DNA from: Candidatus Heimdallarchaeota archaeon
GTDB taxonomy: Archaea > Asgardarchaeota > Heimdallarchaeia > Heimdallarchaeales > Heimdallarchaeaceae
Assembly: GCA_018238545.1 (NCBI GenBank)
Contig: JABCTC010000014.1
Span: 15,933-79,932, forward strand
Length of the DNA: 64,000 nt
Direction: 5' to 3'
The position numbers and the translations under genes were made by a program. This document shows, one piece after another, positions 587-11,690 of the stretch (position 1 is its first letter; every line of letters starts with the position of its first letter). The notes below the pieces were generated by a model that had not been told where the DNA came from, did no database searches, and saw only the letters and a program-made list of their open reading frames with translations.

Positions 587-1630
587 ATGAGTGATTCCCT
601 TAAACCATTATTAATTCGATTGGTAGATTCTTTCTCCTATTATCTGATAAATGAAGCAAGAATTAGCACTGGTAAAGAGGTTGTAAAGTCAAAAATCAAT
701 GATATTGCATATAGAAAAGCAAGTGGGAGATTTGGAGAAGTATATGTCATTGACGTGTTTTACAGTTCTGAGCATGGGGATCATAAGAGCAAATTAGCTA
801 TTAAATTCATTGATAATGTTGAAGATATAATTACAGAAATAAAAAATACTGCACTTCTAGAAAAGAAGTTTTCAACTCGGTCTATAGTTAGAATCCCACG
901 TTATATTTATGTAAATTTAAAAAAACCTACTTATATTGCCTATGAAGGAATGACAGGAATCAACTATGAGGACGCACATTCAGTTTCTGATAAGAGCTTC
1001 TGGGCAGGCTATATTCTATCAATTATACATGAAGGTAAGCCAAAGCCGGTGATTAAAGATATCTATGAAGAATTATACAGACGATTGATTTTATCCGTAT
1101 TTGGTGGTTCTGAAGAAGAACAAAGAATAATGGAAAAATCCAAAGTCTTGATTGAGATGGTTAAAGCTTCTCAAGGAGGTAGCGATTCTTTTGGTGATTA
1201 TCATCAAAGCAACCTTATGATTCGCGTTGCTCCAGAGGGTGAGACTGTGAGTATAGCATTAATTGATCCAACTTTCTGGATGCAAGGATCTTTTGATAGA
1301 TTTGAAGATATAGGGACATTCTTTGGAAGACAAGCATTTCTTGAATTTCGAGTTACAAAATTGCTAACGTCTGCGATAAGTGATATTCAACAATTTATTC
1401 AAGGTTATTCTGTTCACTTGAAAGAAATAAATGGTGTTCCTTTGGAGGAAATGTATACAAAAGGGTATCCCATAGATTTGTTTTTAGCAACATGGGCTAT
1501 GATGGATGTATTAGATAAAACTAATAGCTTCAACATAGCTGCTGATCATCCAGACATTATCTTGTTAAAAGAACTAGCACATTATCTGTTAACAGAACAA
1601 CCCATAGGAAATGAAGTAAACAATTTTTGA
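587..1630 (+). CDS. Protein-kinase-like fold (APH/choline kinase-type) atypical kinase
   Basis: Gly loop SGRFGEVY, beta3 LAIKF, helix-C Glu (ITEIK), catalytic loop FGDYHQSNL, Mg-binding LIDP, later RFEDIG. Confidence 0.7.
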   Translation: MSDSLKPLLIRLVDSFSYYLINEARISTGKEVVKSKINDIAYRKASGRFGEVYVIDVFYSSEHGDHKSKLAIKFIDNVEDIITEIKNTALLEKKFSTRSIVRIPRYIYVNLKKPTYIAYEGMTGINYEDAHSVSDKSFWAGYILSIIHEGKPKPVIKDIYEELYRRLILSVFGGSEEEQRIMEKSKVLIEMVKASQGGSDSFGDYHQSNLMIRVAPEGETVSIALIDPTFWMQGSFDRFEDIGTFFGRQAFLEFRVTKLLTSAISDIQQFIQGYSVHLKEINGVPLEEMYTKGYPIDLFLATWAMMDVLDKTNSFNIAADHPDIILLKELAHYLLTEQPIGNEVNNF

Positions 1631-1642
1631 TTCAATGAAGGG

Positions 1643-1657
1643 GAAAAAATTTATAGA
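1643..1657 (+). promoter_or_regulatory. Putative BRE + TATA box of the JAMM gene (leaderless)
   Basis: Purine run gaaaaaa followed by TTTATAGA (1650-1657), about 24 nt upstream of ATG 1682. Confidence 0.5.
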
Positions 1658-1681: not shown

Positions 1682-2524
1682 ATGACGGATTCTAATTCAG
1701 AAATAATGATATCAGCATATGCAATTGCTAAGATACTAGAGGTAGATGCTCTAGATACTTCAAAAGAATCTGCTGGTGTTCTCTTAGGTTATTTTGATGA
1801 AGAAACACAGAAGCTAATAATAACTGATTTTGATACTGGAAAACAAAGACAAACATCAACCTTTGTCGTTTTAGATGATGAAGCTCTTGTTCAGATTGTT
1901 ACAGATTTGCAGAAAAGAGATAAGAAAGAAACAATTGTTGGCTGGGCACATACGCATCCTTCATATGGTTGTTTCCTCTCTGGTACAGACAAGGGAACTC
2001 AAAGAATCTATCAAAATCTCTTCTCAAAAGCAGTAGCTTTAGTGATTGATCCTTCAAAATATTATCAGTCTCAAAAGAGTTCTGATTTAGAAATTCAGTT
2101 CTTTAGGTTAATAGATGATATAGATTACAAAGCAATACCTTATCATCTATATTTTGATGAACACACCATACACATTTCTAACTTAGCCAAGGTTGACCTC
2201 AAATGGGAATTGCCAAAACTAAGAAAAGAAGAGGTTCTACTTCTACATAAGAAGTTGGAAACGATTGTGACTCCGTCTTTAATTGAACAAGATAAGAAAT
2301 TACTTCATGGACTTGTTGATATACTCAGCGAATCTCATGAAATTCTTTCAGAAGTTGGCGAAGAGAAAGAAATTCTTGAAACTATTGATAAAAAACTACA
2401 CTCAATAAACGAGAATGTTACCCGAATTTACAATGAGGAAACAAATAACATCTATTCAATAATGAATGTAGTAGCTGTAATTGTATTAACTATATCTTGG
2501 TTTTTAATTGCTTACTTTGTGTAA
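1682..2524 (+). CDS. JAMM/MPN+ (Rpn11-like) metallo-isopeptidase with C-terminal helical region and tail membrane anchor
   Basis: ESAGVLLG ... IVGWAHTHPSYGCFLSGTD (intact E...HxH-x7-S-x2-D) and VALVIDP. Hydrophobic C-terminus IMNVVAVIVLTISWFLIAYFV. Confidence 0.88.
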   Translation: MTDSNSEIMISAYAIAKILEVDALDTSKESAGVLLGYFDEETQKLIITDFDTGKQRQTSTFVVLDDEALVQIVTDLQKRDKKETIVGWAHTHPSYGCFLSGTDKGTQRIYQNLFSKAVALVIDPSKYYQSQKSSDLEIQFFRLIDDIDYKAIPYHLYFDEHTIHISNLAKVDLKWELPKLRKEEVLLLHKKLETIVTPSLIEQDKKLLHGLVDILSESHEILSEVGEEKEILETIDKKLHSINENVTRIYNEETNNIYSIMNVVAVIVLTISWFLIAYFV

Positions 2525-2596: not shown

Positions 2597-3412
2597 ATGC
2601 CTAACATTGAAATTATTGCAATTCCATCCCACAAAATAATTGAGGAGACTGATGATTTGTTTGATATATTAGTGGAATCAATGCAATCAAAATCAATAGT
2701 TTTTCAAGAAAATGATGTTTTAATTGTTGCTAGTAAAGTTGTTTCTGTAACTGAGGGAAGAGTGGTGAGTTTTGCTACAGTTTCTCCATCTCAGCTTGCA
2801 AAAAATCTTGCTGAACAAATGCATACTGCTGATGAATTCACTCAAATTATACTTAATGAGTGTGAAAATAATTATATTGGTGTTGTCCCAGGAGCTTTAA
2901 CTACCATTAACAAGTATGGCTTATTAGCAAATGCTGGTGCAGACCAATCCAATGTCAAAAAAAATGAAGTCATAGTTCTTCCTGTAAATAGCAAGAAATC
3001 GGCACGTAGTCTTAACTCAAAAATATTTGAGGCAACTCAACAAAAGGTTGGTGTAATAATTGCTGACTCCAGAACAATGCCAATGAGATTAGGCACTGTT
3101 GGCACTGCTTTGGCAACATATGGATTCAGATCAATAATTGATGAAAGAGGAAAGAGTGATCTATTTGGGCGACCAATGCACATTACTTCAAGGGCAATTG
3201 CAGACCAACTTGCTACAGCAGCTGAAATAGTAATGGGTGAAACAGATGAAAAAACACCTTTCGTAATTATCCGAAATTACCCCCTGATTCTTATATCTGA
3301 AGAAGATGAAAAGGACATAAATGAGTTGATCCCAGCTGATCTATGCATGTTTCTCGGACCACTCATGTCGTGCATTAAAGAGAAAATAGAAGGAGAAAAG
3401 TATAATGATTAA
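2597..3412 (+). CDS. cofE: CofE-family gamma-glutamyl ligase (F420-0:L-glutamate ligase or FolC2-like)
   Basis: DVLIVASKVVSVTEG, ANAGADQSN, GVIIADS, DLFGR, ADQLATAA..MGE motifs. Confidence 0.85.
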   Translation: MPNIEIIAIPSHKIIEETDDLFDILVESMQSKSIVFQENDVLIVASKVVSVTEGRVVSFATVSPSQLAKNLAEQMHTADEFTQIILNECENNYIGVVPGALTTINKYGLLANAGADQSNVKKNEVIVLPVNSKKSARSLNSKIFEATQQKVGVIIADSRTMPMRLGTVGTALATYGFRSIIDERGKSDLFGRPMHITSRAIADQLATAAEIVMGETDEKTPFVIIRNYPLILISEEDEKDINELIPADLCMFLGPLMSCIKEKIEGEKYND

Positions 3413-4256
3413 TGGATTTCTCGGAAATCTCCAAATTGGTGATAACTATCCAACTAGAATAATAGGGATTGTAAATTTATCAGAAACTTCATTTTTTAAA
3501 GGTTCAATAGCTTCTTCTCAAAATGAATTGCAAATCTCGATTGAGAAAATGATTGAAGATGGAGCAAGTGGAATCGATATAGGCGCTCAATCTACACGAC
3601 CAATTCAAATCTATGGCGGCAAAGGTCGACTCAATGAGAATCAAGAGCTAGAAATTATTAAAGAAGCAGTTAAAGCATCTCTAGATGTTCTGAGTAGTTA
3701 CGATAAAATAGTGCTATCAGTTGATACAACAAGAATATCTGTAGCAGAACATTCTCTTAAAGCAGGTGTTAAGGTAATAAACGATATTTCAGGTTTTAAG
3801 AAAGAGAAAGAAATAGCGAAATGCATTGCTGAATTTGATGCTAGTGTTGTTTTGATGGCAGCTAAATCTGAACCTGGTGACGTGTATGAAATTAACGATA
3901 TTTTACACGAGCTACGGACGAGTCTCTCCATTGGTGTTAGAGCTGGAATTGAAAAGCAAAATATGTTAGTGGATCCTGGAATTGGAAGCTGGGAAGCTCG
4001 AGATTTTAAGCATGATTATTCAATAATTAAGAATCTAAAAGAATTTCGGAAATTAGAATCGCCTATTTATGTTGGTATAAGTAGAAAAACGTCTATAGGG
4101 AAAATTCTTAATGATGCTCCACCTGAAGAACGGTTGTTTGGATCGTTAGGAGCTACTATTATAGCTATTGTAAATGGAGCTCATGTCATTAGAACTCATG
4201 ATGTCAGACCAACATTCGAAGCTGTTAAAGTTGCTGAGACAATCTTAAATTACTAA
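3405..4256 (+). CDS. folP: Dihydropteroate synthase
   Basis: GIVNLS.SF, DIGAQSTRP, SVDT, INDISG, VDPGIG, GISRK, IRTHDV. Overlaps the cofE stop by 8 bp. Confidence 0.93.
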   Translation: MINGFLGNLQIGDNYPTRIIGIVNLSETSFFKGSIASSQNELQISIEKMIEDGASGIDIGAQSTRPIQIYGGKGRLNENQELEIIKEAVKASLDVLSSYDKIVLSVDTTRISVAEHSLKAGVKVINDISGFKKEKEIAKCIAEFDASVVLMAAKSEPGDVYEINDILHELRTSLSIGVRAGIEKQNMLVDPGIGSWEARDFKHDYSIIKNLKEFRKLESPIYVGISRKTSIGKILNDAPPEERLFGSLGATIIAIVNGAHVIRTHDVRPTFEAVKVAETILNY

Positions 4257-4263
4257 GTTATCG

Positions 4264-5367
4264 TTAGATTGATGAATCATTGAAACTGTCTTTAAAGTAA
4301 ACACCCTCATCAAATTCAGCTAACCATGTTGGTAATTTTAATCTCGTTTTTATCCTTTGAAGAATATCTGCTCCATTTTCTTCTACCAGGAAAACGACAC
4401 ATCCTCCTAACCCGGCACCAGTTAATTTTCCTCCTAATGCTCCCTCTTCTATACCCGTTTTTACGATTCTATCCAGTATTGGTAGAGATACTTTAATACC
4501 ATCTCGGAGTGCATCTTGTTGTGAAGATAATAACTCTCCTAAATAATGGAGATCAGGTTTTATGCTCTGAAGTTCTCTTTCAGCAAGATCAGTATTTTCT
4601 CTAATTGATACTACTGCTCGAATGATACTAAATTCTTCATTCGAGAAATTTTTCTCATATTTTCCAATATCCTCTCTCTGGATGTTTTCTAGCTCTAAAT
4701 TTGTCATTTTTTTAATTTTTTGAACAACATTTTTTATTTTGGTAACTTTGGAACCATGCACATCACTTGTTAGTTTGGGTGTGTTGCTATTTACTATAAT
4801 GAGACCAGAATTAGGCTTATTTAAGTACTTAAGTTTAGGGGGATCTGTGCACGATAAACTGATAATTGATCCGTATGCGCTGGAATATTGATCCATTTTT
4901 CCACAAGGTATTTTCATTACATTATGTTCCGCATTATATGCTAATTCTGCTATTTCATCATTTTTCAAGTTTAACTCAAGAATTCCTGCAAGATGTGAGA
5001 TCCAACCAACCTGTAGTGCAGCAGAGCTAGAAAGACCACTTGCCACTGGTATGAGACTTTCAATTGTTGCACTAATCAAAGGTGTCTGTATGTCTTTGAA
5101 GTTTTGTTTAAGAGAAATAATCCCTGACTCCATGAATGATTTGAATGAATCGTTAGGGTTAGATAGTTTCTCAACTCTAGGAGAAACTCTAATAGATTTA
5201 TTCAAATTCTTGCTTGATATTGTTATATACTCTTTATTGATTTTCGCAGAAATTATGTTCAATCGGAGGTTAATTGCTGCAGGAATTACTTTTTGAAGCA
5301 AATAATCTTGATGTTCTCCGTATAAACATACTCTCGCTGGTGCGGATGATAGGTACACTATTATCAT
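4264..5367 (-). CDS. galK: Galactokinase (GHMP kinase)
   Basis: APARVCLYGEHQDY, PVASGLSSSAA, CGKMDQY, KLTGAGLGG. Confidence 0.82.
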   Translation of the reverse strand: MIIVYLSSAPARVCLYGEHQDYLLQKVIPAAINLRLNIISAKINKEYITISSKNLNKSIRVSPRVEKLSNPNDSFKSFMESGIISLKQNFKDIQTPLISATIESLIPVASGLSSSAALQVGWISHLAGILELNLKNDEIAELAYNAEHNVMKIPCGKMDQYSSAYGSIISLSCTDPPKLKYLNKPNSGLIIVNSNTPKLTSDVHGSKVTKIKNVVQKIKKMTNLELENIQREDIGKYEKNFSNEEFSIIRAVVSIRENTDLAERELQSIKPDLHYLGELLSSQQDALRDGIKVSLPILDRIVKTGIEEGALGGKLTGAGLGGCVVFLVEENGADILQRIKTRLKLPTWLAEFDEGVYFKDSFNDSSI

Positions 5368-5542
5368 CTTCCAATAATCCTCTGTCCTAATAATTCTTTC
5401 TTGAAAAATTAATTTGTGTGTAGGTCACCACTTGGATTTCTCGTTTCCGTTGTAACAAAGTATTTAAGGAAAAATTACTGTATAAAGCGTGGGAATAAAT
5501 TTCAAACAGCAGAGGTCATTTCCTTCAATTTGGTGTTAGAAT

Positions 5543-6784
5543 ATGAATTTATTAGAAAGAATATTCAAAATTTCACAATACCTTAAAGACGGAAACTATA
5601 ATGTTCAAGACCAAGAGTTTCAAAAAGACCCTTGGACAATGGAGTATTTACCTGAGTTATTTATTTCTTCTGAACAAGTTAACAGTCAGATTGCGCATTT
5701 AATTCAACATTTAACTGGTGGGAATGCCATGTGCTCAATTGTCGGTGGGCAAAAATCTGGTAAATCATATCTGATGAACATATTATATGATGGTCTGAGA
5801 GAAGATTTATGGAAATATACGAAGTATAGCAAAGTACATGTTTTGTTATTTAATCCTGATAATTTGAAGGAATGTTCTCGTACAAATTACTATATGGCAA
5901 TTGCGGATCAAGTGTTATCAAGGCATTTCACTTCATATGAAGAAGTGATTGTGGAGTTAAAGAGATATTTAGAAGGCAATAATGTTCTTCTAGTAGTTAT
6001 GCTAGACAACTTCCAAACTGACAATCTTTCTTCTATCATAAAAAATACCGCATTACTTCTAAAACCTCTGAAGAATCATTTCTCTTGTGTTTTATCAAAT
6101 CAAATCTACGAAGTTAAACTTTGTATTGAAAGTTTAGATAAAGGAGGAATGAAGCATTTCTCATATACAATTAGGATTCCTGAAGTTCTTTCACTAGAAG
6201 AAACTAAGTTATTGATTCAGAAACGCATATCATATGCTTTGAATCAAATTATTGTGAACGCAACTGACTTTTTCTCTGAAAGGGCAATAGAAGCTGCATG
6301 GATAGAATCTCAAGGAAAACCTTGGCAGTTAATCTCATTATTAGAAGATTCATATACTTATTCCAGGAATCAAGAATCAACAATTGTTTCCCATGATGAT
6401 GTGCTTACTGTAGCTAAACTATTTGATAGGTCAACAAATCAAGCGGGTGTTGAAGATCACGATACTTTTGCTATTCAACAAGCTTTGAACAATTTCCCCT
6501 ATCGAGAAAGACAAGTTTGCCAGTATCTTATGCAAAAGGATGCTAGCGCTAAAGAAATAACAATTTATCTATATGGCGAGCTTCCTTCTAATGAGTACAG
6601 GAGCAAATATATGGGAACTAAGAGTTTCTTAAAACGACTTAAAGATAAAAATGTAGTAGTGGTCAAAAAACAAACTGGGAGATCGTTGATATTTGGTTTA
6701 AACCCAAAGATGAAGGCTATGTTCTCTCAAGGAACTGATAAAAGAGATTCATCTTTAACAATAGAAAGTAAAATGGAAACTTAA
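5543..6784 (+). CDS. AAA+ ATPase with C-terminal winged helix (Orc1/Cdc6-like or archaeal ATPase-like), degenerate Walker B
   Basis: Walker A GGQKSGKS, Walker B VVMLDNF, sensor-II-like ESQGKPW, and C-terminal wHTH (ASAKEIT...FLKRLKDKNVV...GRSLIFGL). Confidence 0.7.
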   Translation: MNLLERIFKISQYLKDGNYNVQDQEFQKDPWTMEYLPELFISSEQVNSQIAHLIQHLTGGNAMCSIVGGQKSGKSYLMNILYDGLREDLWKYTKYSKVHVLLFNPDNLKECSRTNYYMAIADQVLSRHFTSYEEVIVELKRYLEGNNVLLVVMLDNFQTDNLSSIIKNTALLLKPLKNHFSCVLSNQIYEVKLCIESLDKGGMKHFSYTIRIPEVLSLEETKLLIQKRISYALNQIIVNATDFFSERAIEAAWIESQGKPWQLISLLEDSYTYSRNQESTIVSHDDVLTVAKLFDRSTNQAGVEDHDTFAIQQALNNFPYRERQVCQYLMQKDASAKEITIYLYGELPSNEYRSKYMGTKSFLKRLKDKNVVVVKKQTGRSLIFGLNPKMKAMFSQGTDKRDSSLTIESKMET

Positions 6785-6806
6785 AAAAGGAAAAAAGGGA
6801 GAAAAA

Positions 6807-7940
6807 CTATTTTTTGGCTATTAATTTGATTATTGTTATGATCTTGAAAATCACATATGCTAATAATAGATTTATTAACAGAAGGTTGGTGAATTCAGTA
6901 AATATTGGGAACCAAGTTGCTGATTCTAGATAGAAATAACCACCTTCAAAGAGATTCTGCAGAGGATAACTATAAGCGCATATTATTAGAAATGGAACAA
7001 GATTCAGTATAAAGAATGGTCCTTCAAAGTTATATCGTATTTTACCTGATGTTCCTTCAGCTCTTTGATAAGTGATAAAGGCCAAACCTATTCCAATTCC
7101 AAATCCTACTATTGGTAATATGTATAACCCATTCAGACCTGTAATAGCCATAAAACTACCATTTGGGACTTTCGAAAACATTTCGTTGAGAAATTGAGTG
7201 TTTGTTTCTCCAAAGATAGAAACTGCTGTAGCATAATCAAATATAGTATTTGATAAAACTATAAATGCAAGAGCTCCTATAATGCTTAATAATATTATAA
7301 TTTGACCAATGATCTCGAATTTCTTACCATTCAATTGTTTTGTAACGATTTTTCTTGAAATAATAATGAATATAATCATGAATATCAATGAAAAAACAGC
7401 TACAATAGTATCCCAAACTGGAACATTATTTATAAATTCTCCAAATGATATTCTTACTGAATTATTATGAAAATCAGTTTGAGCTTCTTGAAGAGATAAG
7501 AATATACTTACTCCCGATCCAATAAATCCTTGAAGACCGAAAACTATTCCTATTAATAGTAACCCAGTTCTTCCAGTCATCTCAATTGATGCAAAGAATC
7601 CTGCGAAGAAGGCTGTTACAATAAATATGATAAGAAGTGCAGCCAATCCTAATTCAACTGTTTCATATGGGTTGTAGAATGACAATACTGCCGCAGCACC
7701 TATAAGAATAGAAGCAACAACATTTTTTGCCATAGCACATGAAACAAAAATAATTGCCAAAGTGAAAGTTATTGTAATTGGAGTGATCCAGTTCCACAAA
7801 GTTTCTGCTTGTAGAATTCCCAACCATGGAAGAAGGAATTCAGTTACTGCAACCAAACCTGCTCCGAAAAACGTTGATAGTAAGGCTCTAAGCGAGAAAA
7901 ATTGTCCTAGATGAAAGTATTTTACGTTTGTCATATACAT
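6807..7940 (-). CDS. Polytopic membrane protein, unknown function
   Basis: About 10 hydrophobic segments. Confidence 0.75.
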   Translation of the reverse strand: MYMTNVKYFHLGQFFSLRALLSTFFGAGLVAVTEFLLPWLGILQAETLWNWITPITITFTLAIIFVSCAMAKNVVASILIGAAAVLSFYNPYETVELGLAALLIIFIVTAFFAGFFASIEMTGRTGLLLIGIVFGLQGFIGSGVSIFLSLQEAQTDFHNNSVRISFGEFINNVPVWDTIVAVFSLIFMIIFIIISRKIVTKQLNGKKFEIIGQIIILLSIIGALAFIVLSNTIFDYATAVSIFGETNTQFLNEMFSKVPNGSFMAITGLNGLYILPIVGFGIGIGLAFITYQRAEGTSGKIRYNFEGPFFILNLVPFLIICAYSYPLQNLFEGGYFYLESATWFPIFTEFTNLLLINLLLAYVIFKIITIIKLIAKK

Positions 7941-8027
7941 CGTACTCTCTGATATAATTTAACTAATATTATGGATATTAAGTCTTATGGGAAAAAAAAG
8001 CTTTTGGCTGTACCCAATCGAATACAG

Positions 8028-8402
8028 CTATTGAGGTTTCATTGAAATCATCGTACATCCAATGAACGTAATTAAACCAGATCCTGCTGCAATCATTATT
8101 GTCGCAATACTACTGATTGCGGGTTGAAGGGCTGCAAGATCATTTTGCCAAACAGCTAAGTATACTGTAAAAATTATCAGAGCTGCTATCATTAATCCTG
8201 TGAAAACAAGATATGCATTCTTTTCTTCAGATTTGAAGACTCTTGAAACTGATCCTAGCGAGAAACCACCTAATATTCCTATACCTAGATAAAACAAAAG
8301 CCACCAGAACTGTGTAGTTAATTCAACGATGGTAATCGTAACACCTGCGATTCCTATGGCAACTAATATTCCACCAATGAATGATATGGGTCTAGCACTC
8401 AT
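8028..8402 (-). CDS. Small 4-TM membrane protein
   Basis: Four hydrophobic helices; upstream GGAGA RBS-like motif. Confidence 0.75.
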   Translation of the reverse strand: MSARPISFIGGILVAIGIAGVTITIVELTTQFWWLLFYLGIGILGGFSLGSVSRVFKSEEKNAYLVFTGLMIAALIIFTVYLAVWQNDLAALQPAISSIATIMIAAGSGLITFIGCTMISMKPQ

Positions 8403-8516
8403 TAAATCATCTCCAGTATTTTATCTCCAAGTTTATTATATTAATATTTCTAAATCATTTGTGAATACAAATTTACTTTATTAGTTTCAAACCTTTCTTA
8501 ATAATAGAAAGAACAG

Positions 8517-9254
8517 CTATTCTTTAGACAAATCCTCGATAATTGTTCCATCATTCATTACAAGCTGTCTTTGAGCTAAAATTGCTTGGTCATTAGAGTG
8601 AGTAACATAAATTAGCGTTTTTTTATGTTCTTTGCTTAAGTCTATTAGAAGATCAAGGATTCTCTTACCTGTACTTGAATCAAGATTCCCTGTCGGTTCA
8701 TCCGCAAGTATTATCTCTGGATCATTTGCCAGAGCCCGTGCAATTGCAACTCGTTGTTGCTCTCCTCCGCTCAATTGGTCGGGTTTGTGATTTCTCCGTT
8801 CCAACAACCCTACAGCGCCAAGCAACTCTTCTACTCTTATTTTTCGCTCTTCTTTAGGTTTTTTTGATAGAATCAATGGAATTTCTATATTCTTTTCTGC
8901 GTTTAATTCTTCTAACAAATTGAAATTTTGAAAAACATATCCAATTGTTTCTCTTCGTACAAAGCTTAATTCCCTATCACTTAATTTGTTAAGCTCTTGA
9001 CCATCAACTGTAATGGTTCCTGAATCTAAGTAATCTAAAGCCCCAATTAGGTTTAGTAATGTTGTTTTGCCTGATCCCGAAGGACCAACTATGGATACTA
9101 TCTCACCTCTATGTATTGACACTGTAACGCTATCTAGCGCTTTGACCATCACTTCACCTAGAGAATACTTCTTCGAAACATCTATGATATTTATGAAGTT
9201 CTTTTTTGTTTTTCTCTTAGTTTTCCTTGCAGTGCTCGTAGATTCTTGAGACAT
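8517..9254 (-). CDS. ABC transporter ATP-binding protein (LolD/MacB type)
   Basis: [47 protein letters not shown]. Confidence 0.93.
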
Positions 9255-9276
9255 TATTTTCTACTCTCTCAAAATA

Positions 9277-9600
9277 TTATTTGTAGTTGTCGATTGTAGA
9301 AAACCTCTCTCTCATGGTTTCCATTTCTTTTATCCAAGCTTCTTCTAGGTTAATATCGTGAAGTATGCATAATTGCAAAAAGAGAGTGAAAACCTGCGCA
9401 AATTCTCTAGATAATCCTTGATTATCTGGTTTTTGGTGACCTTGTTCCTCAGTTTTATATCCTGAAGCAAAAATCAGATGTTTTCCTATCTCTCCTAGTT
9501 CTTCTACTAAATGAATGAAAACGTCGTTGGGGGAAAATTTTAACCAATTACGTTCTTCTAAAAAATTTTTCAAAGTGTTAATTATCTCATCTAATTCCAT
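9277..9600 (-). CDS. MazG-like nucleotide pyrophosphohydrolase
   Basis: ERNW...HLVEELGEI...EFAQV all-alpha NTP-PPase pattern. Confidence 0.75.
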   Translation of the reverse strand: MELDEIINTLKNFLEERNWLKFSPNDVFIHLVEELGEIGKHLIFASGYKTEEQGHQKPDNQGLSREFAQVFTLFLQLCILHDINLEEAWIKEMETMRERFSTIDNYK

Positions 9601-9614
9601 TAAACATCACGTTC

Positions 9615-11690
9615 TTAAGTAGAATACGTTTTTAGTGTCCTTTTTGTAACGCGGGTTTTGCAAATTGGGCACTCTTCTTTTATTTTAAGCCACTGTTCCA
9701 TGTGCTCTTTGTGGGCTAAATTGGTACATGTAGGGCATTCCATAACAGTCTCACCGTGCTTAATTAGTCCTTGACATATTGAGCACTTGGTAGGAAGCTC
9801 CTTACAGTTCTTACATGGTTCATTTACAGATTCAATAACATGCCCACATTTCAAACAGTGTGTCTTTTTAGATGGGAGTCTAATTCTTGTTAGTCTTTCA
9901 AAAGTTGATTGAGTTAGAGAACCTTGATAATAACCATGAGCAATAAGTTGACTAGTCATTTTGAAAATGTCAATTTCTGGCAGATTCAACTTCTCAGCAA
10001 TCGTTACTAGTCGGATTTTCCTTCTTCTGGATTTTTCTATCTCATTTACAACCCTAATATAGATTTCTCCAAGATCTTTTAGCTCTCTACTAGGTAAGAT
10101 TTTCTGGAAAGATTCAACGTATACAGCGCTTCCTCTGAGCTCAATATTTAGCAATCCAGAACCCACTAGTTCAAAAATTATGTTGGTTACAGCTACAGCT
10201 GATTTTTCCCAAATTTTCTGTATAGATTTCAAAGATGTTTTTGGATTAGAAATGATGTAGCCAAATATTTCCTGATAGTGAATAGGCAAGTCATCTAATT
10301 GAACAAGAGGTGGAAATAGAGGAATCTCTTCTGGAATGAGTTTATTTCCTTCTATTGATCCTTTAATTAACCCCTTACCATAGAAACCATATAGTCTTTC
10401 TTTTGCATGGTGCTTGTCAATACCTAATGCAAGCGATATATCTTTGGTTGTAATATAAGCTTTAGAAACAATCATTCCTAGAACTATTTTTTCCCATCTT
10501 TCTAATGTTCCTTCTTGAGCCCTACTATATCTCTTGATTCCTTCTATAATCAGAACGTTTCCACTTAATGAGCATTTTACAAATCCTTCCAAAAGTAAGT
10601 TAATGACTCCTTCTAAAATCTCTCCATCGGTTCTATTCATTAAGGCACCAAGTCTTCGTAACGAAATTTTCTTTTGTGTCGAAAGAAGGCCAAATAGTGC
10701 TTCATAACTAAAGAATGATAAAGTCGCCATCTCCTCTATTGTTCTTGTTGGACTAAATTCAGGTATAGTAACTGGTACAATATCGTTTGTTCCTAAAAAT
10801 ACAACTTGGAAGGTTCCTCTTGCAGTTAGAGTTGCTAAAGTTCTTAGAATTTCGTTTCTTTCCTTTCCTATGAATTTGCTAATCTCTTGATGAGAAGCTT
10901 TTTTGGTTAATAAGAGGTAACCTATAACTTCTTTTTCAATTCCTTGTAAAGTTGATAAAGGAATAATCTTAGGTTCGATAATATATTTTGTAATATTGAT
11001 GAATACTGAAGTGGTTCCAAGTTTTTTCTTCTTGAATTCCAATTCTGCTTCTAATTTCTTTAACAGCAAAAGCTTTGATATTTTTTCTATGATTACTTCT
11101 TTAGGAAATTCAGTAATTTTTGAAATTGTGATTATGTTTGCTTTTCTCAGCATCATAGCAATTCCAACAATAAATGTATCGTCTTCCGTAAGTTTAATTT
11201 TCTCGTCTGGTGCCCAGTTCCATTGTACAAAAACATTCTCTTGCTTTATTGATCCTATAAATAAACCCCGACTTGTCAGGAAAAATAAGTGATTAATAAG
11301 TTCTTTCTTTGATATGCCTACTATTTCTGAAAGATTCGACATACTCACTTTTTCTGATTGAGATAAAAATCCAAGAATTATCTTTCTTAATGGTGTCACT
11401 CGTGAAGAATTTATTTTGGGATACTTGTATATTGTTGCTATAGAAAATATGCTTCTTCTGTATGAACCTCTCACAATGAGAGCTTGTACCATTAACTGAA
11501 TATAATCTTTAATTGCTTCAACTGGAATTTTATAGTTAGTTGAAAACTCTGTTAAATTAATCTCTCTCAGCAAGTATAATTGAGTTAAAATTTGTGCTCT
11601 CATACGTTTTGAAATGTCAACTTCTGGAAGATCTAAATCACTAAACTTAATTTCATAGACATCATCTCTCTCAAAAGCCAGTTGTACCAT
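9615..11690 (-). CDS. Tandem winged-helix (PCI-like) repeat protein with C-terminal Zn ribbon and RING finger (putative E3 ligase)
   Basis: About 8 wHTH-like repeats, then CLKC..CKNC, then CSIC-x12-CPTC-x4-H-x2-H..W..CPIC. Confidence 0.75.
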   Translation of the reverse strand: MVQLAFERDDVYEIKFSDLDLPEVDISKRMRAQILTQLYLLREINLTEFSTNYKIPVEAIKDYIQLMVQALIVRGSYRRSIFSIATIYKYPKINSSRVTPLRKIILGFLSQSEKVSMSNLSEIVGISKKELINHLFFLTSRGLFIGSIKQENVFVQWNWAPDEKIKLTEDDTFIVGIAMMLRKANIITISKITEFPKEVIIEKISKLLLLKKLEAELEFKKKKLGTTSVFINITKYIIEPKIIPLSTLQGIEKEVIGYLLLTKKASHQEISKFIGKERNEILRTLATLTARGTFQVVFLGTNDIVPVTIPEFSPTRTIEEMATLSFFSYEALFGLLSTQKKISLRRLGALMNRTDGEILEGVINLLLEGFVKCSLSGNVLIIEGIKRYSRAQEGTLERWEKIVLGMIVSKAYITTKDISLALGIDKHHAKERLYGFYGKGLIKGSIEGNKLIPEEIPLFPPLVQLDDLPIHYQEIFGYIISNPKTSLKSIQKIWEKSAVAVTNIIFELVGSGLLNIELRGSAVYVESFQKILPSRELKDLGEIYIRVVNEIEKSRRRKIRLVTIAEKLNLPEIDIFKMTSQLIAHGYYQGSLTQSTFERLTRIRLPSKKTHCLKCGHVIESVNEPCKNCKELPTKCSICQGLIKHGETVMECPTCTNLAHKEHMEQWLKIKEECPICKTRVTKRTLKTYST

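Follow-up and report, generated by a model that had tools for sequence, protein, structure and literature searches.

A predicted tail-anchored JAMM isopeptidase of the CsRpn11/Rpn11 type in Heimdallarchaeaceae and other Asgard archaea

A 64,000-nucleotide stretch of DNA from a Candidatus Heimdallarchaeota archaeon (family Heimdallarchaeaceae; genome of 3.6 Mb, 92% complete), analysed whole and hereafter called the window, carries on its forward strand a gene (1682..2524) for a predicted tail-anchored, Rpn11/CsRpn11-like JAMM protein. The gene starts with ATG, encodes 280 amino acids followed by a stop and is built of three parts, namely an MPN+/JAMM domain, a helical stalk and one terminal hydrophobic helix; the domain, motif and transmembrane (TM) predictions, their conservation and the gene neighbourhood described below are computational results. 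Asgard archaea possess genes for ubiquitin, for E1, E2 and E3 enzymes and for ESCRT-I, -II and -III (ESCRT, endosomal sorting complex required for transport), and their ESCRT-I and ESCRT-II proteins bind ubiquitin. To our knowledge, the deubiquitinase that matures and removes ubiquitin in this pathway has not been pinned down so far, and we know of no integral-membrane enzyme among the eukaryotic JAMM deubiquitinases. Judged from its sequence, the gene product is apparently an active, catalytically competent MPN+/JAMM zinc isopeptidase of the CsRpn11/Rpn11 type, and we propose with moderate confidence that it is a cytoplasm-facing, membrane-tethered ubiquitin C-terminal hydrolase, which would fill the deubiquitinase gap of the Asgard ubiquitin-ESCRT cluster.

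Pfam assigned residues 5-113 of the protein to JAB (PF01398; E 1.4e-12, 47.9 bits, cut-off 22.5), with a second match, to Prok-JAB, barely over its own cut-off. An AlphaFold (AF2) model built from 21 homologues (mean predicted local distance difference test score, pLDDT, of 73.6) supported the Pfam match in delimiting the catalytic MPN+ (JAB) domain, through its secondary structure, as residues 1-157 (1682..2152; this and all other features of the gene lie on the forward strand), with pLDDT 77-90 over most of it. Foldseek matched this domain to yeast and human Rpn11 and to CsRpn11 with probability 1.0 and target-normalised TM-scores of 0.75-0.84, a fold assignment made from a predicted structure and not from a solved one. 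The intact JAMM site described in the original prediction was recovered in full. The catalytic glutamate E29 (1766..1768), in KESAG, aligned to the Glu of REVAG in CsRpn11 and of MEVMG in Rpn11. The zinc-binding motif H90-T-H92-x7-S100-x2-D103 (1949..1990), read directly from the sequence as H90-T-H92-PSYGCFL-S100-GT-D103, is contained in GWAHTHPSYGCFLSGTD (residues 87-103), and both this string and VIDP (residues 121-124), which had been quoted as its context, were found. E29, H90, H92, S100 and D103 were invariant in the alignment of 21 family members and also in 23 TM-ended JAMMs from other lineages, at 25-51% identity, and we infer zinc-dependent activity for the protein. A segment resembling Ins-1 (residues 52-64, TGKQRQTSTFVVL; 1835..1873) aligned with TGEQYGTPAYVQL of CsRpn11 (TGKQ.QTSTFV versus TGEQYGTPAYV), and within it T52, G53, Q55, Q57, T58 and V62 were invariant across the family; in CsRpn11 the Ins-1 segment pairs with the ubiquitin tail (PMC6043591).

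The stalk occupies residues 158-256 (2153..2449), with helices placed by AF2 at residues 160-168, 182-194, 202-217 and 228-256, and residues 228-279 form a single continuous helix in the model. No Pfam family above cut-off and no Atlas neighbour was obtained for residues 158-280, comprising stalk and tail, nor any fold match for the stalk, and an AAA_6 assignment for the stalk was dismissed as sub-threshold (16 bits versus a cut-off of 25). The heptad-like nature claimed earlier for the stalk was borne out by a conserved segment at residues 231-250 (2372..2431; ILETIDKKLHSINENVTRIYNE spans residues 231-252), in which positions 232, 235, 239, 242, 246 and 249 are V, I, L, M or F in 95-100% of the family while the intervening positions vary freely. 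The resulting hydrophobic pattern of 3-4-3-4-3 has a periodicity of about 3.5-3.6, though it extends over about three heptads only.

The protein ends in a predicted TM helix of 24 residues, I257-YSIMNVVAVIVLTISWFLIAYFV-280 (2450..2521), which finishes at V280 with zero residues beyond. Its Kyte-Doolittle 19-residue mean is 2.32 (2.3-3.0 across all 21 homologues) and its summed Hessa insertion energies are negative; the call, based on hydropathy, insertion-energy scales and the AF2 helix, is a sequence-based prediction and not an experimental topology. The best hydropathy window outside the tail reached only 1.14 and there is therefore no signal peptide and no second TM, in agreement with the earlier claim of one TM located right at the C-terminus. 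The tail is common to all 21 aligned family members, down to 50% identity, with Y258, N262 and W273 invariant. In other lineages the sequences of stalk and TM diverge and the stalk ranges from ~40 to 100 residues, but the hydrophobicity, length and terminal position of the TM are kept (23-protein alignment). Polar residues in TM helices offer a general basis for helix-helix association, and the invariant N262 beside the heptad segment suggests self-association, a helix-helix contact or a membrane partner.

Surveyed across Asgard archaea, as the original prediction had proposed, the layout proved to be conserved and widely distributed. Of the 30 Heimdallarchaeaceae genomes, 28 gave a profile match to a copy that was either full-length or cut off by a contig end, and the terminal TM was kept in 28/30, the remaining two genomes being 89% and 81% complete. 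For the other families, which bear f numbers here, the best profile matches were fetched and translated from one to few genomes per family, and absences are provisional. TM-ended JAMMs were present in families of the same order (f2, f3 and f4; 278-312 amino acids), of the same class (f7; 272-289) and of other classes (f10-f16, f26, f27 and f33; 218-251, with shorter stalks), the last including Baldrarchaeota (f11), Freyarchaeota/Jordarchaeia (f14), Helarchaeota (f16, Hel_GB_B) and Odinarchaeota (f27). A hidden Markov model search covered 1.84 billion cluster representatives, and 35 of the 68 top-scoring ones checked (P0052-P0119) had a hydrophobic C-terminus; a word-index search returned further TM-ended JAMMs of 255-266 amino acids labelled Nitrososphaerota. 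In the sampled genomes of f5/f6 (large-genome Heimdall-class families), f9, f17, f19/f20 (Promethearchaeota/Loki-type), f28 and f29 (Sifarchaeum), JAB proteins were present and none of them had a terminal TM.

The Loki-type JAB proteins of f19/f20 are about 275 amino acids long, with JAB in the C-terminal half. In Promethearchaeota and Hermodarchaeota records (L131-L156) the Loki-type JAMM measures 265-284 amino acids, has a ~90-residue N-terminal extension before JAB and carries an acidic C-terminus of striking conservation (…LPEILKFMNPIIEGKAVYLEYDED). Another arrangement of a membrane JAMM was seen in records labelled Bathyarchaeia or Thermoplasmata (L128:620-2203, L129:9992-11275, L176:9965-11293, P0087, P0107, P0115 and P0117), where an N-terminal JAB is followed by a TM at ~185-207 and by a C-terminal domain of 200-350 residues that is presumably extracellular.

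Among sequences of known structure, the anchored JAMM matched CsRpn11 best (6FJV; E 7.5e-25, 91 bits), followed by Rpn11 (65 bits), CSN5 (49) and AMSH/Sst2 (25-36). A quick maximum-likelihood tree of the MPN domain (60 hand-chosen rows, arbitrary root, with Shimodaira-Hasegawa-like approximate likelihood ratio test, SH-aLRT, support only) separated two sides with an SH-aLRT of 93. On one of them lay the TM-ended proteins together with short soluble Asgard JAMMs and the CsRpn11 group of Aigarchaeota; on the other, representatives of eukaryote-type Rpn11 were joined by the Asgard JAMMs of operon type, among them the second JAB gene of the source genome. The JAMM phylogeny suggested in the original prediction thus places the protein on the CsRpn11 side, but pairwise scores conflict with it on proximity to Rpn11, to which the anchored JAMM scored 65 bits and the operon paralogue 47, opposite to the tree. 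A few soluble proteins branched within the TM-ended set and the TM forms from Nitrososphaerota lay inside the aigarchaeal soluble group, and the anchor was therefore gained or lost more than once. A Pfam scan detected neither RPN11_C (PF23594) nor a MIT domain in the JAMM protein, and the same scan detected RPN11_C in the eukaryote-type representatives P0120, P0123 and P0125. The label Rpn11-like given at the outset holds for the type of MPN domain, with CsRpn11 as the nearest characterised relative: on sequence grounds the protein is predicted to work in the manner of Rpn11 and CsRpn11, but it does not appear to be orthologous to Rpn11, CSN5 or AMSH.

CsRpn11 of Caldiarchaeum subterraneum (PDB 6FJU/6FJV/6FNN), with 33-36% identity in Foldseek alignments, has the MPN+ core and the catalytic residues in common with the anchored JAMM, along with a similar Ins-1, and groups with TM-ended JAMMs in the quick tree. 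It cuts the CsUb precursor after GG, with its C-terminal helices dispensable for catalysis, and it deconjugates its ubiquitin as well as removing post-GG extensions; it is specific to its own ubiquitin and rejects SAMP precursors (PMC6043591). Such trimming of an archaeal ubiquitin behind its GG matches the need posed by the GGY-ended ubiquitin described below. The two proteins differ in that CsRpn11 is a soluble protein of 202 amino acids encoded inside a Ub/E1/E2/E3 operon, whereas the anchored JAMM has 280 amino acids, a stalk of ~100 residues and a TM, and is unlinked to ubiquitin genes. The aigarchaeal homologues of CsRpn11 end in a short basic amphipathic tail and not in a TM. In the CsRpn11-like proteins P0237-P0275 (Aigarchaeota/Caldarchaeum, 202-247 amino acids) these ends are conserved (…GFLGKAKKLFG, …ERAKKLLRP, …LSNFLKKIRDRVG) and the terminal motif is similar to the membrane-targeting helices of MinD and FtsA; the last 30 residues hold the strongest helical hydrophobic moment of each protein (median percentile 0.994) and a net charge of ~+3. 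This composition suggests that CsRpn11-type enzymes may bind the membrane peripherally.

Three other known systems bear comparison. Eukaryotic Rpn11/PSMD14, of the 26S lid, was the runner-up in sequence and fold (TM-score about 0.8 on the MPN domain) and has the JAMM motif in common with the anchored JAMM, in the eukaryote-like context GW.H.HP…FLS..D. It is soluble and active in the lid only, whereas RPN11_C was not detected in the anchored protein, and no Rpn8 or PCI lid partners are encoded near its gene. AMSH, AMSH-LP and Sst2 offer a functional analogy, as JAMM enzymes at the membrane alongside ESCRT, and by that analogy the anchored JAMM might be linked to ESCRT. They are nevertheless a much weaker match, below Rpn11 and CSN5, and AMSH comes to the membrane peripherally, through STAM and ESCRT-III, whereas the anchored JAMM, which has no MIT domain, would be integral. 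In architecture, the closest parallel is with tail-anchored proteins such as SNAREs, Sec61beta and the Heimdallarchaeota SNARE-like proteins (bioRxiv 10.1101/810531), which have a cytosolic N-terminal domain and a heptad helix running into a terminal TM, without a signal peptide. In the anchored JAMM, by contrast with these, the cargo domain is a protease, and neither SNARE nor any other family was detected in the stalk.

The case for ubiquitin as substrate begins with distribution. The ubiquitin (PF00240) and JAMM profiles coincide at family level, both being present in 286 of 399 Asgard genomes; families lacking ubiquitin are those lacking the JAMM profile, and all TM-JAMM families have ubiquitin. 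These related genomes are not independent and we attach no statistical claim to the coincidence. Ubiquitin of the type …VSAIGG…RTxGG occurs in all TM-JAMM lineages checked. In the source genome it is encoded in a complete ubiquitin-ESCRT cluster on contig C21 (L178, G000:C21:26000-44000; open reading frames 4278-11678), together with an E1-like gene, a UEV/Vps23-core/Vps28 fusion (487 amino acids), EAP30, Vps25, Vps4 and two Snf7 genes, and this cluster contains no JAB or deubiquitinase gene. The C21 ubiquitin has 78 amino acids and ends …RTKGG-Y, and therefore needs trimming. Residues after GG were likewise seen elsewhere, namely L in H. aukensis, LEY in f4, A in f3, PY in Freyarchaeota, T in Helarchaeota and W in one f13 genome, with 4-10 extra residues in Odinarchaeota (SVKY and RADTRRGGIL). 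In two Odinarchaeota genomes (97% and 98% complete) the TM-JAMM was the only PF01398 or PF14464 match at E 0.01 or better.

Apart from the anchored JAMM, the source genome has one JAB gene, which lies in a second modifier cluster, arranged E2-JAB-x-x-Ubl-E1, on contig C114 (L005, G000:C114:18000-34000; open reading frames 4384-11047). This cluster comprises E2, a soluble JAB of 242 amino acids, unassigned genes of 368, 192 and 244 amino acids, a ubiquitin-like modifier (Ubl) and E1; the Ubl has 119 amino acids, with an acidic, lysine-rich N-terminal extension, and ends …STAG. A gene for a gelsolin-repeat protein stands divergently beside the E2. The possibility that the anchored JAMM is encoded inside ubiquitin operons wherever it is the sole Rpn11-like gene was rejected, as the genes were either located on separate contigs or separated by hundreds of kb; in Odinarchaeota, for example, ubiquitin is at 131 kb and the JAMM at 956 kb.

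The conserved neighbours of the JAMM gene lie outside the ubiquitin system. No homologue of E1, E2 or ubiquitin occurs within 10 kb, whether in the window flank or in the 13 loci with long flanks, which represent seven lineages, and no lid or PCI partners are encoded near the JAMM. Directly upstream on the same strand is a gene (587..1630) for a 347-amino-acid protein without Pfam, NCBIfam or PDB sequence matches. Its motifs (GRFGEVY…AIKF, HQSN and IDP) and its language-model Atlas neighbours, which are APH-family clusters, are the only grounds on which we place it, provisionally, with the APH/choline-kinase-like phosphotransferases. This gene precedes the JAMM in 26 of 26 Heimdallarchaeaceae loci with that flank, and of 11 f4 genomes 6 have the two genes side by side and 5 have them no more than about 2.5 kb apart, at identities between the two families of about 27% for the JAMM and about 32% for the kinase. 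A universal pairing of the kinase with the JAMM was rejected: the two are unlinked in f2 and f3 and there is no kinase orthologue in f7 (0/12). A paralogue of the kinase-like gene is found at G000:C125:4237-5214, and f5, whose sampled genomes had no anchored JAMM, contains related kinases (E about 1e-26). Between the two genes of the window, a TATA-like TTTATA after an A-rich tract (1649..1654, forward strand), 28 nucleotides before the JAMM ATG, may be a promoter of the JAMM gene's own.

In Odinarchaeota, Freyarchaeota/Jordarchaeia, f26, Baldrarchaeota and f12, the TM-JAMM instead comes after Asgard-specific genes of ~410 and ~260 amino acids on the same strand, directly or within 3 kb (L125:7963-9982 in Odinarchaeota, L102:7871-9871 in Jordarchaeia/Freyarchaeota and L104:6520-8559 in Baldrarchaeota). 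The 260-residue partner lies beside the TM-JAMM or less than 3 kb from it, same strand, in 5/5 cases in f14, 3/3 in f27, 1/1 in f26, 3/3 in f11 and 16/19 in f12, some of these neighbourhoods being taken from genome-scan coordinates. Neither partner gave a Pfam or NCBIfam match or could be related by profile to the kinase or to MPN, and neither has a significant homologue in the source genome, one weak match (E 0.003) being dismissed. An AF2 model of the 260-residue protein (pLDDT 73) gave no Foldseek match (best E 0.27) and VIA-align Z values of 3.3 or less, to Sm-like folds. The 260-residue family is absent from the Heimdall class and the Loki-type families and present in 83 of 89 genomes of f31-f33, of which only 3 have ubiquitin and 3 the JAMM. 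Its function is therefore independent of the JAMM, which looks like an add-on to the 410/260 pair rather than the reverse.

Two further observations concern the flank downstream. A RING-finger protein of 691 amino acids is encoded at 9615-11690 of the window (reverse strand), ~7 kb downstream of the JAMM, and a RING protein at 50% identity lies ~6 kb downstream of the JAMM in a second genus of the family (L097:12876-14909); such proximity may reflect simple synteny and not a link in function. At 2597-4256 (forward strand), a CofE-family (F420-0:gamma-glutamyl ligase) gene overlaps by 8 nucleotides the start of a pterin-binding, FolP-like gene. The pair follows the JAMM in its own genus and is on the opposite strand or elsewhere in other genera.

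The simplest reading of these data, by analogy, is that the anchored enzyme would do at the membrane what CsRpn11 does, that is, remove ubiquitin extensions and deconjugate. The protein would be made in the cytosol and its last 24 residues probably inserted post-translationally into the cytoplasmic membrane, leaving the N-terminus inside and essentially nothing outside. The MPN+ domain would then stand on its ~100-residue helical stalk at the inner membrane face, perhaps as a dimer, and would cleave after the C-terminal Gly-Gly of ubiquitin, thereby removing the one-residue extension of the …RTKGG-Y precursor; ubiquitin would probably also be taken off membrane- or ESCRT-associated conjugates. 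In this scheme the substrate, the topology and the ESCRT link are what we infer. A deubiquitinase tethered to the membrane, as first proposed, is the best-supported reading of the sequence, but precursor maturation is at least as likely a role as the recycling of ubiquitin from cargo that had been envisaged, because the nearest characterised relative, CsRpn11, processes ubiquitin precursors. A route for tail-anchor insertion had also been suggested, and the genome does contain homologues of Get3/ArsA (E 4.8e-80; C48:37332-38267) and EMC3/DUF106 (E 9e-16). Both families are unspecific and match archaeal control genomes too, and they are therefore not specific evidence for such a route.

Several observations weigh against a membrane-tethered ubiquitin hydrolase or against parts of this scheme. 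The stalk is modelled at low confidence (pLDDT 46-73), and the stretch directly before the TM is net acidic instead of following the positive-inside pattern. The link to ubiquitin is phyletic and not syntenic. Families f12, f11, f10, f33, f7 and f2 encode ubiquitin already ending in GG; provided that ubiquitin is its substrate, the enzyme's job must then extend beyond maturation to deconjugation. A strict ESCRT role is further opposed by the lack of linkage between the anchored JAMM gene and the ESCRT cluster and by the presence of TM-ended forms in Nitrososphaerota. Finally, f19/f20 and f5 have ubiquitin and ESCRT genes but no TM-ended JAMM in the genomes examined, and the anchor is therefore not required for the Asgard ubiquitin-ESCRT system.

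The conserved neighbours, which lie outside the ubiquitin system, raise the possibility that the enzyme is anchored and active on something other than ESCRT-linked ubiquitin, such as the second Ubl, a modifier of the SAMP/Urm1 type or some other substrate, either a peptide or one ending in Gly-Gly, tied to the APH-like kinase in Heimdall families and to the 410/260 pair in Odinarchaeota, Jordarchaeia, Baldrarchaeota, f12 and f26. The retention of the kinase-JAMM pair across two families at about 30% identity would fit such a substrate, as would the same-strand association with the 260-residue partner in five families (f14, f27, f26, f11 and f12) and the existence of a second Ubl in the source genome; moreover, other JAMMs act on SAMPs, MoaD and CBASS conjugates, and weak NCBIfam matches to such families were obtained. 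We nevertheless regard this alternative as unlikely: the second Ubl has a JAB gene in its own operon, Odinarchaeota ubiquitin needs trimming and no other JAB gene was found there, the 260-residue family also occurs in f31-f33, where most genomes have neither ubiquitin nor the JAMM, and CsRpn11 shows specificity for its own ubiquitin and refuses SAMP precursors (PMC6043591).

A very improbable alternative is that the C-terminal helix packs into the interior of a helical bundle or soluble oligomer, leaving the enzyme cytosolic, in the manner of the Rpn11 and CSN5 helices in the lid and signalosome. Those two proteins do assemble bundles through their C-terminal helices, Foldseek loosely aligned the full-length model with full-length Rpn11 (274 columns, rmsd, root-mean-square deviation, 8 A), and the invariant Asn, Tyr and Trp of the helix, with the heptad segment, point to helix-helix contacts. 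A 24-residue run of such hydropathy and negative insertion energy at the exact C-terminus is, however, typical of a tail anchor, and a helix that varies in sequence while keeping hydrophobicity, length and terminal position has the pattern of a lipid-embedded segment rather than of a specific protein interface; nor are lid or PCI partners encoded nearby. It seems to us scarcely credible that the protein resembles Rpn8 or CSN6 in serving at the membrane as a ubiquitin receptor or as an MPN scaffold without catalytic activity. Many MPN proteins are indeed pseudo-enzyme partners, but five JAMM residues invariant over very divergent members are the signature of MPN+ and not of MPN-.

The enzyme family is known; its integral-membrane architecture and the breadth of that architecture appear to be undescribed. 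We found no description of a tail-anchored or transmembrane JAMM in Asgard archaea in the literature searched, a search that left most subscription journals outside its reach. Fuchs et al. (2018) placed Asgard JAMMs beside CsRpn11 with sequences trimmed to the core and membranes unmentioned, and residues 174-202 of CsRpn11 are unresolved in the published structure (PMC6043591); ubiquitin-ESCRT surveys only counted JAB/MPN genes (PMC9192718, PMC10936438). A terminal TM would therefore go unnoticed where JAB genes were counted or trimmed to their core.

The membrane-tethered ubiquitin hydrolase proposed here makes the anchored Rpn11-type enzyme, the sole JAB protein found in two near-complete Odinarchaeota genomes, a concrete candidate for the deubiquitinase of the Asgard ubiquitin-ESCRT pathway, and its anchor would fix the site of ubiquitin removal at the inner face of the membrane. 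It also offers a defined tail-anchored client for studies of archaeal Get3/Oxa1-type insertion, and the finding bears on the origin of the soluble lid, signalosome and AMSH enzymes from archaeal precursors. We advance a wider reading only tentatively and hold it to be doubtful: membrane tethering may be an old, general trait of the archaeal Rpn11-like hydrolase, with the anchored enzyme as the ubiquitin-ESCRT deubiquitinase. For tethering, most Asgard lineages and some Nitrososphaerota would use a tail anchor and Aigarchaeota, with CsRpn11 among their enzymes, a basic amphipathic C-terminal helix of the MinD type; the anchored enzyme would mature ubiquitin and strip membrane cargo before ESCRT-III scission. 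If this were true, membrane ubiquitin recycling would be older than eukaryotes, the integral enzyme would later have been replaced by peripherally recruited AMSH and Doa4, and the soluble paralogue would have gone to the proteasome lid.

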